Part shown: positions 10,851 to 62,220 of the stretch, one piece after another
How positions within the stretch are numbered: position 1 is the first letter of the stretch
Layout of the letters: every line of letters begins with the position of its first letter
Source of the DNA: Eledone cirrhosa
Taxonomy: Eukaryota
Length of the DNA: 64,000 nucleotides
Assembly (NCBI GenBank): GCA_964016885.1
Contig: OZ024743.1
Location: 39,060,001-39,124,000, forward strand
Direction: 5' to 3'
Notes under the pieces: generated by a model
What the model was told of the DNA's origin: nothing
Database searches by the model: none
What the model saw: the letters and a program-made list of their open reading frames with translations, nothing else
Translations under genes and position numbers: made by a program

Positions 10851-10906
10851 ACTGCTATATATATTTTGATGATAACCATTGAATTGCTATGACCTCATCA
10901 GGCAGT
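10851..10906 (-). ncRNA. Type I hammerhead ribozyme, degenerate (GAAA>AAAA), in a pLTR fragment related to 52350-52900
   Basis: Minus strand: actgc CTGATGA ggtcatagc..ggttatcatc AAAA tatata TA gcagt. Confidence 0.65.
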
Positions 10907-10974
10907 TAGTCAGTTCTAAGATATGCCAGCTCTGTGTTTATGGTGTTGATGGTATCAGAGTCTTCGGACATATA

Positions 10975-11710
10975 TATATATATTTGGCAATATACTGTAT
11001 GTTTAATTTAAAACACTTAGTAAACCATTCGCTATGAGTTTTAAAGTAGTGACTATGTCTCTTATGTATTCTCGGCAAATAACAACAGAGAGTGATCGAC
11101 AGACAGTCTGTTCCTCGCTTGTGAACGTTTATCAAGAGCTCACACTCCCCTGCCATTGCCGAGAATGATAGTAGCTGCATTCTTATAGAATACCAGAAAT
11201 AATAAGGAGCTACTTATACAGAGAGATTGTCGGTCCAGGAAACGTTAGGTATTAGTATTGGTGCTCTGAAATAGCGATGTGTACACGATTATATATGTAT
11301 AGTATATTTGGTAATATACTGTATGTTTAATTAAAATCATTCAGAAGGCAATTGACAACATAGAGTGATCACCAGACAGTCTGTTTCCACTTTGCCAAAT
11401 ATACTATACATACATCGCTATTTCAGAGCACCAACACTAATACCTAATGTTTGCTGGACTGCCAATCACTCTGTATAATCAGCTCCTTATTATTAATAGG
11501 ATTTCTATAATAATCCAGCTTCTATAATTCTCGGCAAAGGCAGCGGAGCGTCTGGTCTTGATAAACGCTCACAAACCAGAAACAGGCTGCCTATCGATCT
11601 CACTACTTTGAAACTCATAAATATTTTAAATTAAACATACAGAATATTCCCGAATATACTATACATACAGTCATGTATACATCGCTATTTCAGCGTACCA
11701 ATACTAATTT
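10975..11710. mobile_element. Old retrozyme-like array: ~322-bp unit, minus-strand tandem then inverted copy, with HHRs
   Basis: tatatttgg.aatatactgtatgttt at 10981 and 11303; inversion at ~11390. HHR-like motifs at 11090-11147(-) and 11554-11599(+) with TTGATAA core. Shares atcgctatttcagagca and aaacatacagaatatt with the 23907 array. Confidence 0.7.
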
Positions 11711-11712
11711 TT

Positions 11713-12592
11713 TTATATATATGTATATGGATATATATATATATATGGATATATATATATATATACATATATATATATATATATATATATATATACATAT
11801 ATATATATATACATATATATATATATATATATATATATATATATATATATATATATATATATACATATATATATATATATATATATATATAAACATATAT
11901 ATATATATATATATATATATATACATATATATATATATATATATATATATATATATATATATATATATATATATGTATATATATATATATATATGTATAT
12001 ATATATATATATATGTATATATATATATATATATATGTATATATATATATATATGTATATATATATATATATATATGTATATATATATATATATGTATAT
12101 ATATATATGTATATATATATATGGATATATATATATACATATATGTATATATATATATATATATATGGATATATATATATATATGGATATATATATATAT
12201 ATATATATATGGATATATATATATGGATATATATATATACATATATATATATATATATATATATATATATATATATATATATATATATACACACATATAT
12301 ATATATATATATATATACATATATATCTATATATATATACACATATACATATATATATATATATATATACACATATATATATATATATATATATATATAC
12401 ATATATATATATATATATATATATATATACATATATATATATATATATATATATATATATACATATATATATATATATATATATATATATATATATATAT
12501 ATATACATATATATATATATATACATATATATATATATATATATATATATACATATATATATATATATATACATATATATATATATATATAT
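11713..12592. repeat. Very long interrupted (TA)n microsatellite
   Basis: Direct reading. Confidence 0.98.
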
Positions 12593-13204
12593 ATGGTGGC
12601 TGCCAACTCGTTTTCGAGTACGGCCACTACTTTATATCCATGTAGGAGAACCCCTACCGATGCGCTGAACGAGTGTGACTTTTTAGTCCAGCCAGCGACT
12701 TGAAAACTCTGGTACAAACACTACACTTGTGACAATTACTGACACATAGTGCTGGGCCCATGGTACCACGTGACGACAAGTGCAGAGAGATCTCCAGATA
12801 TAAAGCAATGCCTGTGCCGTGAAGCTTTTATAGTGAGCAAAGGCACTGCACAAAGCCAGTCCCACTCTCTTAACCAAGATGATATTTACCAAAAAGAAGA
12901 ACAAGTCAACATCATTGGATACCATCAGGGTTGCAGGTGCTATATCAGAGTTTTCCTTCTCCTAGAATTCTGCCTTGACAAAGGCTAAGGGGTCATCTCT
13001 CCCGGTGATTTTGGATGGCCATTGACTCTTAAGAGCTCCTTTGCCCTTTGACAGGTTTTGTTTTTATTCCTGCAGGATGTCCAAAGTCACCCTCCTCACC
13101 AAGAAACCTTGGTGGGGTTGCCAGTTTAGTCGCCAACGACCCGACCATGGGACAGGTTGTACTGGGATACATGTTACCAGTAGCACCAACTGGTGACCTG
13201 ACAT
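12593..13204 (-). mobile_element. Non-coding ~610-bp element resembling an RTE-clade 5' UTR derivative or SINE, inserted in (TA)n/(TATG)n
   Basis: Closely similar to 57961-58524. Contains ctaggagaaggaaaactctga on the minus strand, a motif I associate with RTE 5' UTRs. No credible ORF. Confidence 0.6.
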
Positions 13205-58950: not shown

Positions 58951-59040
58951 TATATATATATATATATATATATATATATATATATATATATATATATATA
59001 TATATATATATATATATATATATATATATATATATATATA

Positions 59041-59412
59041 TACAATATATTAACAAAAGGAAACTATATTTATAAAACCATATTTATTTCATTATACATA
59101 TCAAGGGCCACCAAGGCAAACTATTGTGCGCTTTCATCAGATAAACTATAATATAGGTTAGTTGTAATGGTTGCATTTTTTAAGGGTATGTCAATATTTA
59201 TTTATAAATCTAACCTAAATTATATTTTATCTGATGAAAGCCCACCATAGTTTGCCTTGGTGGCCCTTGAAATATGTATAATGAAATATATACGGTTTTA
59301 TAAATATAGTTTCCATTTGTTAATATGTTGTATATTTACTCCAATAATTTGTTGAGTGCTTTATATCAGTTATAAAAATATTTCGCTTGTTGTACCCCAA
59401 CAAATTAAATAT
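59041..59412. repeat. Fold-back solo pLTR with HHRs (59226-59285 on plus, intact; 59088-59145 on minus, mutated); related to 37661 and 57505
   Basis: tttat CTGATGA aagcccacca..tggtggccctt GAAA tatgt ATA atgaa. Confidence 0.85.
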
Positions 59413-59550
59413 AACCTCTACATATATATATATATATATATATATATATATATATATATATTCATGTGTGTGTGTGTGTGTGTATGTGTGTGTGTGTGTG
59501 TATGTGTGTGCGTGTGTGTGTGCGTGTGTGTGTGTGTGTGTGTGTATATA

Positions 59551-60045
59551 TATTACAAAATAATAGGAGGCATGTTCCTGTGTAATTCCTTGAAAGGTTT
59601 ATTTTACTATGATCATTTCAATGACCGGGTTCAATATGATTCCTGTGAGATAATAAGGAAATTCTAAATATAACGAAGGAATATATCAGGGGGCGGTCGA
59701 CGTGGATACACGTCGCTAAAATACCGGTGCCCTCTTATCTCTGATTTAAACACCAAAGATTTTCATCTGATATATTCCTTAAATATATTTTGAATTACCT
59801 GATGATGTCACAGGATTCATACTGAACCCGGTCATTGAAATGATCATATTAAAATAAACATTTCAAGGATTTACACCAGAACATGTCTCCAGGTATTTTG
59901 TAATAATCAACTCCGTACTCGCACCCCCAACTACACAGACGAAGACGGGTTGTTACATAACGTTGAGTGCTTACCATAAGATTACATCGTGGCTGACCAC
60001 ACAGAATGACCAGTTCAATCTAGTGGTGAACCAAAACCCAAATAA
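59551..60045. repeat. Fold-back pLTR-like relic of another family with HHR at 59795-59852 (+)
   Basis: Arms 59551-59689 and 59767-59905; ttac CTGATGA..GAAA tgatc ATA; palindrome ATGATCAT. Confidence 0.75.
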
Positions 60046-60079
60046 ATATATATGTATATATATATATACATATATATAT

Positions 60080-62220
60080 TTATTAAAATAACAGATTAAA
60101 GTTTAAGCAAAGAATCGCTGCTTTCACCCTTAACGGGATCTTCTGAAACTAACAAAATCAATCTGTAAACGCAGAACTGGATATTTCAAAAAACGTTGCA
60201 ATCGGAGGAAGACAGGAAGACGATACTTTGGTTCGTGGTAACGTTCGCTGGCAAAGAACGGGAAAAAACGAATAATACGTCATTAATAGGAGCGGTGACA
60301 AACAATTACGCGTAAAGACAAAACCACGTTTATGGAATAAAAGAGGTCGTAGACTAATGTTCTCTTAGGTGGTGCATAGAGACGTTCTCTGGCAATGAAC
60401 GAAAAAACGACGATAATAAGTCATATGTGGAGCGTAGAGAACAATAGCACGCAAAGACAAAACAAAGTAAATGGTATAGCAGAAATCGTAGACTAAAATT
60501 CTAACTAGGAGACCAAATGAATCTCCGCTACAGAGTTAAGAACAAAGTAAATAAATACAATACAGAAGTAATAGAAACAAATAAATACATACACTCAAAC
60601 AGATACGTACATACACAAGCATACGCAAAACCTTACCATGGGTATACAAAACCACGCACATATAAATATGTGTGTGTGTGTATGCTTGTGTACAAATAAA
60701 TAAATAATTATATAAACGTATATTAGTAAATAAATACGTATATAACAAGCGCACACGCATACCTACATATAAATACACGAATGATCGGAGACGTAAGTCA
60801 ACTAAAACAAGAAGTACACATATACACACACCCACCATAAGTACGAACTTGCACACTCACGCGGACGCAAAACTCCCGTATACAAATAGCCAAACCCTAA
60901 ATACCAGAATATGTAAAAGTTATACGCTATAACAGTCAAATATACGTACGAGAAGGTATACATACCTTCACAAAACATACGGTTAATATATACTTACCTA
61001 TGCAAATAAGTAAAGGAATAGAGAAAACATATACTTAGCTCCCAAATCAAGACGTAAAATATCCACGTATAGATCGTGCTATCCGTTAGGGTATAACGTG
61101 GTGCTGTAATACAGGAAAGTTTTGTGCAATTTATGTTTACAAGCCGAAATTGCCTCAGATTTTTTGTTTAAGATGTGGTCTGTAGCGTAGAGTATTTCCA
61201 GGGCCTCAGCGGCGCAGAGGTCACATGGTCTTTTATTTCCGTTATACGATCTAGCCCTAGCTAGGATCTCCCAGTGTAACTTATATTGGGTGTGGTTGTC
61301 TTTTAGACTCCAGATATAAGCTGAAAGTGACGTCATATTCCTTCTTAGAGGGTAACGAAAAGAATGGATATGCATGTAAAGACGCTGCTTGAAACTATTG
61401 GCGGTTAACCCTATGTAGGCCCTACGGGACGTGGGTGTTAAAACCTTACATTTGTAGACAATGTTACTAGAGAGGCATTTCCCGGATAGGGGGCAATCAG
61501 CCCGATTCCTACAATTACAGTTAGTACTAACTACAGGGTTGCACGTGTTCCTACGGCTAGGTAGTTTAGCTAAATTTGAAGCTGTGATGTTATGTGCAAG
61601 GTAAGGAGTCGTAGAGTAAGAAATTTTAATAGTATTTCTATTAAAAATTTTACTATATTTATGTGTAGGGGAAAAAGCTTCGTAATCAGGGAAAGAAAGA
61701 TCTTAGCTAATGGTGTGGCCACCTCCATATTATATGGTGGGTTAAACCAACAAATGCGACGGGATCTATTTCTTCTAGGTCTATTTTCGTACTCTGTATA
61801 TGCTACCTTATCGACAAATCCACTTCGAGCAACAGCTTCATTGTAATAAGTGGAATGGTCGTTTAAAATGCGCTCGTTGGTGAAAAGACGGGAAAGCCTC
61901 AACGAAACGTTTCTTACCAGGTTCTTGGTTATGCTGGCAGGATGGTTGGAATGCTTACTTATGTAATTAAGCGTATCATTCGGTATTTCTATACGGGTAA
62001 TACAACCCATTCAATAAATTGAGGGTAACGTCGAGGTAATCAACGACCGAGAGATTGGCCTCAACCTGTATAGAGAGGTTGAAGCCTTTAAAGAAGGCTG
62101 TGAGTTCTTTTCTGAACCTGTCGCAAGCACGAGGTCCGCACGGTTCTTATATATTTGATATATATTTTCCTTATCGAGCCCTCTTTAGATTTTAGTCTTC
62201 AATTTTATTATTATTACTAT
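60080..62220 (-). mobile_element. 5'-truncated Naiad-type PLE with inverted pLTR tip at 62140-62220
   Basis: DRFRKELTAFFKGFNL..YLDVTLNL, HSNHP, WFNPPYN, CNCRNRADCPLSGKC, VY..YIGLT, CDLCAAE..CKH ending 61079. Confidence 0.9.
60100..60150 (-). ncRNA. Type I HHR variant (CAGAAGA core, CUU cleavage triplet)
   Basis: agttt CAGAAGA tccc gttaa gggt GAAA gca gcgattctt tg CTT aaact. Confidence 0.65.

Follow-up and report, generated by a model that had tools for sequence, protein, structure and literature searches.

A repeated hairpin as a candidate end signal shared by Hydra-clade Penelope-like elements and non-coding hammerhead arrays in (TA)n tracts of Eledone cirrhosa

What carries non-coding hammerhead ribozyme (HHR) arrays into the same kind of (TA)n tract that receives Penelope-like elements (PLEs)? 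The question is raised by a stretch of 64,000 nucleotides from Eledone cirrhosa (assembly GCA_964016885.1, contig OZ024743.1, positions 39,060,001 to 39,124,000 of the forward strand; hereafter the window, with positions counted from its first letter), an AT-rich sequence crowded with (TA)n tracts, 82 of which lie past position 10,700. A sequence-only reading of the window had proposed that autonomous PLEs of the Naiad type, HHR retrozyme arrays and other passenger RNAs share one fold-back integration signature. Our evidence comes from this single window, from 80 related loci on metagenome contigs and from the literature. The landscape that it describes is real and mostly known: Hydra-clade features, inverted copies, tails and the link between retrozymes and PLEs have already been published. 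What our comparison would add is a conserved cis hairpin that appears to mark both ends of these insertions and to tie the HHR arrays to the Hydra machinery. We think it rather probable that Hydra-clade PLEs and their non-coding passengers in (TA)n owe a back-to-back layout of one short and one long end to two cDNA starts, each before one of two hairpins.

The insertions leave a scar with a constant geometry. Arms were aligned for 17 units of the window, and all of these two-armed units are head-to-head. In 13 of the 17 one arm is flush with (TA)n while the opposite end overhangs, by 28-171 nt in the 12 single-unit cases and by more than one unit in an array of 591-bp units; the unit borders were placed by eye, so that only this contrast between flush and overhanging ends is non-circular. 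The 13 flush ends lie at most 8 nt from a TA tract, against a background of about 3% of positions, and longer TA-like runs near the short end were left unused. Four units depart from the pattern: the unit at 10984, whose best alignment is internal; that at 14095, which overhangs on both sides; that at 54433, with an internal arm far from TA; and that at 60080-62220, whose arms have nothing in common. Family alignments show one fixed short and one fixed long end in all three two-armed insertions of family F60 and all three of family F37, a pairing in six of six with a chance of 1/64 if ends were independent, and the long end recurs in both insertions of a 312-bp family and in both copies of a tRNA-headed element. 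Inner junctions hold spacers of 1-27 nt at several units (1 nt at 56094, 2 nt at 41696 and 13 nt at 57496), and arms within a unit differ by 1-21%. The inverted copy of an element's own 3' region that had been claimed for most insertions is present at 14314, 21096, 28201, 37661, 23907, 50160, 10984, 56659 and 58648; at 62140 the arm holds the family's tail only. The outer part of the inverted arm is unmatched in its own direct arm in six units (14095, 28201, 37661, 56659, 62140 and 62306), and in two others (21096 and 58648) it is the direct arm that bears the tail. Judging by its layout, the one-sided overhang is the PLE 'tail', found here also on non-coding elements.

This scar is absent from the other repeats compared within the window, as had been expected. 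Six copies of a short interspersed element (SINE) family lack an inverted arm; their distances to TA tracts are 121-2118 nt, and one has a clear 12-bp target-site duplication (TSD). Six further control elements have no terminal inverted arm, their top score of 53 coming from neighbouring F37 fragments in the flank. The proposed use of (TA)n borders as the mark of a shared target held for the 13 flush ends, and failed as a diagnostic in itself: (TA)n flanks alone do not identify such insertions, because the element at 12595-13200 is flanked left and right by (TA)n yet shows no inversion. With 57962-58541 it forms a non-coding family, 95% alike with one copy permuted and without an HHR match, which we take to be RTE-like.

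A hairpin, (G/A)CTC…GAG(C/T)(A/G)C, sits behind the short end. Its CTC lies at +3 to +11 after the flush end in seven of ten window families against a background of 8-10%; this offset window was picked post hoc, and any 3-mer was as enriched in 1 of 20,000 random sets. A complementary GAG follows further on in five of the seven. The outside loci, which are the best 80 of 479 Hydra-like loci, on short contigs, carry an HHR in 62 of 80 cases. For the motif we used the 64 loci with at least 90 nt before the open reading frame (ORF), reduced to 47 by removal of near-duplicates; CTC-N6-45-GAG(C/T)(A/G)C occurs 5' of the ORF in 40 of these 47, inside the ORF in none, and on the antisense strand in 10. 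Between the HHR and the ATG, 41 loci have at least 170 nt: 23 of them hold two hairpins, 53-83 nt apart, 12 hold one and six none. Most outside loci close the hairpin with an outer G-C pair; in several window families this pair is A-U. A base-pair tally across all outside hairpins was too noisy for use. TA runs with a continuing partner lie 6-11 nt before a hairpin in 8 of 18 cases (null expectation 1.3% overall and 11.6% near an HHR), before hairpin 1 in L044, L055, L058 and L063 and before hairpin 2 in L001, L007 and L064, with one unassigned. The layout of L001, in which a TA run is followed by a tail-only inverted arm and then by the direct unit, matches that at 62140 in the window. Published consensus sequences agree in part, Hydra-1_Ajap beginning with both hairpins before its ATG and Hydra-2_Amil ending with one.

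Two arrangements at outside loci may be recorded beside these counts. Positions 2933-2956 of L064 hold two Hydra-like elements tail-to-tail in one TA run, each ending just before a hairpin position, and some copies, in L020, L026, L034 and L038, start at a TA run on a hairpin site, a placement that would fit insertion against the end of an older copy.

The same hairpin, in full or shortened form, is found in the two HHR arrays. A strict type I pattern gave 12 HHR matches in the window against 0-1 in each of 20 shuffles of the sequence, which confirms the presence of HHRs. Of these matches the 312-bp array holds five and the 591-bp array two; F37 relics account for three more, and single ones lie at 55848 and 37422. 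The 150 Rfam matches listed out of 181 are mostly microsatellite noise and include no hammerhead, and the HHR and tail folds are mostly no stabler than those of shuffles. HHRs of the arrays are of the minimal or U3-A8 types. The 312-bp array (23907..25349) comprises 2.7 and 2.0 units head-to-head with arms 99% alike and five minimal HHRs, three and two in consecutive units, and ends in a 43-nt tail with a shortened GCT-N6-GAGCAT hairpin; GCT-N6-GAGCA(C/T) is the best-kept stretch of the 312-bp family, and all six of its matches in the window fall inside that family. The 591-bp array (50160..52285) joins about 2.5 and 1.0 units head-to-head, 97% alike, with two U3-A8 HHR units in a row, and has the hairpin motif behind both ends: ACTC…GAGTAA 13 nt after one and ACTC…GAGCAA 5 nt after the other. 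At its inner junction (51664-51684) stand short templated repeats of 11-13 nt, such as several rounds of slippage at the joining step might leave. In each array neither arm is shorter than one unit, and the Hydra-like profile finds no match, i.e. no PLE coding sequence, in either. Judged by sequence, both have the two or more consecutive tandem units with a complete HHR by which Li et al. (2026) recognise non-LTR retrozymes. The third array that had been claimed does not: 10984..11710 is an older pair, arranged head-to-head, that belongs to the 312-bp family at about 68-70% likeness and has the same long end, of about 1.1 units per arm (86% over aligned columns), with a U3-A8 core, decayed stems and no passing HHR. 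Alignments of the 312-bp and 591-bp units with the pseudo-long terminal repeats (pLTRs) of the PLEs do not rise above shuffles, a pattern scan of the metagenome contigs for the 312-bp family gave 0 matches, and the unit variants do not resolve the source register of an arm. A search of sequencing runs returned part of the stretch in 12 of the 16 runs listed, with a best share of 0.52 and no RNA run among them.

The coding PLEs with which these arrays share the window belong to a different clade from the one first assigned. A named homolog at 36% comes from Argonauta. A profile built from 120 listed homologs recovers 11 coding remnants, in line with the roughly ten divergent copies expected; all are truncated or interrupted, and none is intact. 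A Pfam scan did not detect the PLE reverse transcriptase (RT). In every remnant long enough, RT is followed by a C-terminal GIY-YIG endonuclease (EN) in one short ORF of about 765 codons. RWK and DKT are present in the copy at 47022 and DKT in that at 37788, the remaining copies being without that region; the linker motif CxCX5C occurs in 8 of 10 regions checked, and the EN motifs CxxC in 10 of 10 and CxH in 9 of 10. An HHR in the pLTR and insertion at (TA)n were found for coding copies, and in several older copies the HHR has decayed too far to pass the strict scan. By domain order and motifs these remnants are, as far as sequence can assign them, Hydra-clade PLEs, a clade for which (TA)n insertion and HHRs have been reported and which includes Hydra-1_Obim, a family in Octopus (Craig et al., 2021, PMC8557442). 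The Naiad identity was rejected on the C-terminal EN, DKT rather than DKA, the CxCX5C linker and the presence of HHRs. Naiads, which the supplement of Craig et al. lists for Octopus, do share the (TA)n preference, the inverted copy and the tail, but have an N-terminal EN, DKA, a CxC linker and no canonical HHR (PMC8557442). An N-terminal GIY-YIG with a CxC linker before RT was not found among the coding copies here; the label is wrong because Naiads carry the EN in front and are without canonical HHRs. Nor can autonomy be upheld, for the longest ORF (47022..49316, plus strand; RT then GIY-YIG) is interrupted at codon 663 by a TGA and also carries a late frameshift. It belongs to a partial tandem at 45624-49880 that lacks an inverted arm, and its 5' untranslated region holds two degenerate hairpin remnants with GAGCAA halves (46870..46995, plus strand).

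The tRNA-headed element (58648..58950, plus strand) extends the scar to a ribozyme-free sequence. The head that had been noticed at 58731-58802 is found by Rfam (34.6 bits, cut-off 29) and called by ARAGORN; its D, anticodon and T arms are intact, and an A box and a B box are present. It is preceded by an inverted arm (58648-58734, 90%) and followed by a 72-nt tail on the direct arm. This tail has its own 7-bp stem, with one two-sided change between the two copies, and its alignment with the pLTR is not above shuffles. HHR and Hydra hairpin are both absent. A second copy, 5'-truncated (20864..21025, plus strand), has an identical long end. Tested as tRNA-derived SINEs, with which they share the tRNA-like head and its A and B boxes, the two copies differ in having the PLE-type scar of (TA)n flanks and inverted arm, and neither a TSD, which could hide in (TA)n, nor a LINE-like 3' tail was seen (LINE, long interspersed element). 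A run of five to six T residues about 10 nt behind the head, present in all three arms, would stop RNA polymerase III and so argues against a SINE transcribed by that enzyme. A link of this element to PLEs is likely, as judged from the scar of its one full copy. The idea that its acceptor stem primes the fold-back was dropped, the called stem being partly the inverted arm itself. F44, a non-coding element at 56659..57432 (plus strand), likewise has an inverted arm (93%) and a 28-nt tail without the Hydra hairpin; a single-armed copy lies at 44334-44617.

These observations suggest a model in which the PLE endonuclease would nick both strands of (TA)n and each nick would prime reverse transcription 6-11 nt upstream of one hairpin. 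The tail would then correspond to hairpin 1 plus the spacer, and the two truncated cDNAs would be joined at their 3' ends, head-to-head, through microhomology or a short snap-back. The 591-bp and 312-bp arrays would be copied by the Hydra machinery because they have kept the hairpin, and the tRNA-headed element and F44 would likely have used a PLE too, via a different signal. We infer that the hairpins act as start signals, that one RNA serves as template for both cDNAs, and how the two are joined. The process would recall L1 twin priming, in which two target primers on one RNA yield an inversion; there the upstream annealing site of the second primer varies and no 3' duplication arises, whereas the two starts proposed here have fixed positions close to the 3' end. 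A wider claim, to which we give slightly less than even confidence, is that the repeated RNA hairpin is a clade-wide cis signal placing two PLE RTs on one RNA, that inverted pLTR and tail form one two-primer product, and that any RNA keeping or mimicking the signal rides along, be it a retrozyme array or a SINE-like, tRNA-headed, ribozyme-free partner of PLEs and not of LINEs.

Other explanations account for parts of the same evidence. The hairpins could be cut marks in DNA: a self-primed fold-back with equal ends would form first, and the EN would then trim one end at the hairpin during integration. Craig et al. attribute the tail to EN-mediated resolution, and Frangieh et al. (2024, PMC11167929) cite a need of the tail for EN recognition in the Penelope of D. 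virilis; trimming would also explain the short central loops and why arms are closer within an insertion (87-93%) than across F37 copies (76-83%). It nevertheless requires an extra precise cut at exactly one end, sits uneasily with fold-backs that span 2-3 kb or land on tail-only sequence (62140 and L001), and is met by in vitro start sites of a relative that already match the tail ends; we judge it unlikely. The snap-back of a single cDNA onto its own 3' region, without a second primer, was the mechanism originally put forward, and PLE self-priming has been inferred from palindromes by Arkhipova et al. (PMC3846280). It fits several inner junctions, among them the near-zero spacers at 56094, 41696 and 57496, the templated repeats at the 591-bp junction and the arm at 54433, made of 35 bp of internal EN sequence. 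Plain snap-back is insufficient all the same, because a copied arm holds nothing new and yet six inverted arms carry sequence that their direct arm lacks. These arms contradict it as the sole mechanism; moreover, outer ends lie at fixed family sites and neither arm of the 312-bp array could be wholly copied from the other, and on its own it is quite improbable.

A further reading denies that the arrays are mobile retrozymes: a PLE would have inserted pLTR fragments a single time, and unequal crossover would have multiplied them in place. This would suit HHRs of the minimal PLE type and the local amplification of a terminal repeat proposed by Li et al. (2026, bioRxiv 10.64898/2026.07.22.740005). 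Against this, the three full 591-bp units have 10, 9 and 9 private differences, with no difference in common, a star-like pattern as if of equal age; two insertions of the 312-bp family share their long end, no array arm falls short of unit length, and the insertion step would still be made by a PLE. We regard such expansion as distinctly unlikely. Breakage and fold-back at fragile (TA)n, or chimeric reads, unrelated to PLE enzymes, would draw on the abundance of TA tracts, on an inverted duplication centred on one of them at 27752-28177 and on junctions known from the assembly alone. The divergence between arms, already offered as an argument against an artefact, and the private differences of the 591-bp units both speak to the contrary, as do the SINE copies and other controls without terminal inverted arms and the recurrence of ends at fixed family sites beside a motif conserved in other sources; an origin of this kind is highly improbable.

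Several observations also weigh against the two-start model itself. In the outside loci 10 of the 18 TA-run ends fail the strict test (by eye, two have a variant or offset hairpin, five run into the upstream side and three are microsatellite noise), and an inverted repeat of any kind occurs in just 8 of 80, on contigs that are short. Within the window the 312-bp unit has no hairpin behind its long end, the short end at 10984 lies about 30 nt from the motif, 41696 has the 5' half of the hairpin only, and F44 and the tRNA-headed element lack the motif. Hairpin 2 is invisible in most window families, of which no full unit is present, and window tails of 28-171 nt span a wider range than the outside spacing of 53-83 nt. 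Beyond the HHR and the hairpin, neither array has homology to coding copies of the window. A look-alike ACTC…GAGTAC hairpin stands 11 nt from the left end of the element at 12595, which is not a clean control for that reason. Spacers of 1-27 nt and the arm at 54433 are compatible with snap-back, and all window counts come from one window without a genome-wide tally.

How the two-start model relates to known systems can be stated more closely. Our PLEs share with the published Hydra clade the C-terminal GIY-YIG, RWK, DKT, CxCX5C, CxxC, CxH, an HHR in the pLTR, (TA)n insertion, the inverted 5'-truncated copy and the one-sided tail; tails are 28-171 nt here against the 30-40 published, and the portions of Craig et al. 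at hand describe neither a twin hairpin nor its match to the two ends. The word 'stem-loop' is absent from their text and supplement, and they name the origin of PLE inverted repeats and tails as an open question (PMC8557442). The Poseidon PLE PAc nicks and extends both strands in vitro and starts at two fixed internal sites that bound the tail, with a stem-loop at the start region (PMC11167929). It is of another clade, its starts fall within the ORF, in one AC-rich stem-loop, where the model here has them ahead of a repeated hairpin pair upstream of the ATG, and inverted arms are left unexplained in the passages of that study at hand. The U3-A8 core is known from Schistosoma PLEs and dual HHRs on opposite strands have been described (PMC4209133), and non-autonomous PLEs are known in Chlamydomonas. 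Animal non-LTR retrozymes are likewise non-coding tandem units with type I HHRs, proposed as PLE passengers or derivatives (Cervera and de la Pena, 2020, PMC7229834; Li et al., 2026). In print that link is supported by co-occurrence and by homology to pLTRs; our own support comes from an insertion scar and a common cis hairpin. The HHRs here are minimal or U3-A8, and the arrays are known from DNA alone. Our literature searches and passages of PMC13282606, PMC10886601 and PMC8969392 contained no twin hairpin, no short-long rule as a two-primer product and no tRNA-headed PLE passenger, although Repbase reports and most papers behind a subscription, older PLE reviews among them, lay outside their scope.

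The proposed tie between the non-coding elements and the PLE machinery is thus supported by the common head-to-head layout, the one-sided tail and, for the arrays, the hairpin; it was the clade that had been wrong. The mobiliser of retrozymes has so far been argued from co-occurrence and homology, and a short conserved hairpin is a single element open to deletion, swap or re-spacing in an existing in vitro assay. It would also be a simple tag for Hydra passengers among unclassified repeats. If the wider claim is true, retrozyme arrays and the SINE-like tRNA-headed element would be passengers of PLEs via a hairpin kept or mimicked.

Among the coding copies with arms, the old remnant at 14095..15999 (plus strand) has an inverted arm at 14095-14406 that matches over 93 bp from 14314 (92%) and continues to 14095 as an unalignable tail, an extra part with GAGCAC that the direct arm lacks. 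At its other end, 15922-15999 contains a U3-A8-like HHR whose stem III runs straight into the flanking (TA)n, and this segment is inverted in the other arm. Two 5'-truncated PLEs follow on the plus strand: 21096..23859, with an inverted arm at 21096-21322 (97%) and a 171-nt tail on the direct arm whose first letters are TATTATTACTC, and 28201..31138, with an inverted arm at 28201-28661 (91%), an 82-nt tail and a GCTC…GAGCAC hairpin at 28274 on the minus strand. The inverted duplication at 27752-28177, 55 bp long, adjoins the left end of the latter; it looks like a fold-back of the target itself. The F37 element at 37661..41150 (plus strand) has an inverted arm at 37661-37793 that matches its direct arm over 36 bp (89%) and bears a 97-nt tail with an ACTC…GAGTGC hairpin, and the F60 element at 60080..62220 (minus strand) has the tail-only arm at 62140-62220.

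Remnants at 52345..54430 (minus strand) and 54433..56037 (plus strand; a 35-bp internal snap-back arm at 54433-54529, an HHR at 55848 and a hairpin at 55955) are of two PLE families placed head-to-head, each reaching its own (TA)n; 52345-56037 may record a single event that used two RNAs, or two insertions whose intervening DNA was deleted. A further remnant, of the 54471 family, lies at 62306..63332 (plus strand) with its right end undefined; 62306-62410 is likely an inverted tail, assigned only by a hairpin at 62366 on the minus strand, and an alignment linking 62306 to 55860-56037 was not above shuffles. The decayed remnant at 41941..44170 (minus strand) has approximate borders, and an inverted arm was not found for it. 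No inverted arm was found for the copies at 42821, 45624/47022 or 53804, the alignments for 42821 and 47022 not rising above shuffles.

The expectation of at least six short palindromic relics was confirmed by six. Two are F37 pLTRs with one short and one long end, at 57496..57842, with an HHR in each arm, and at 59043..59421; two are of family F60, at 56094..56312, where one arm has an 88-nt tail beyond the 1-nt spacer, and at 41199..41334, with a short spacer and a 64-nt tail on one arm. The remaining two have no parent in the window: 41696..41845, with a 35-nt tail and the ACTC half alone, and 59551..60045, with a 140-nt tail containing ACTC…GAGTGC. A solo F60 pLTR (31165..31488, plus strand) terminates at the long end. 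Single-armed relics lie between TA tracts at 10806-10970, which shares its HHR with the PLE at 52345-54430, and at 45328-45536. A neat minimal HHR with a U3-A8 core at 37422-37451, about 140 nt before a (TA)n tract, is perhaps a further pLTR relic behind a LINE.

That LINE (31565-37020), which we take to be Tx1-like, has apurinic (AP) endonuclease and RT domains by Pfam, with a related fragment at about 7600-9290. At 18536-19851 (minus strand) a broken EH-domain coding stretch of 1.3 kb without introns adjoins a SINE and is likely a retrocopy of a host gene, presumably REPS1-like.

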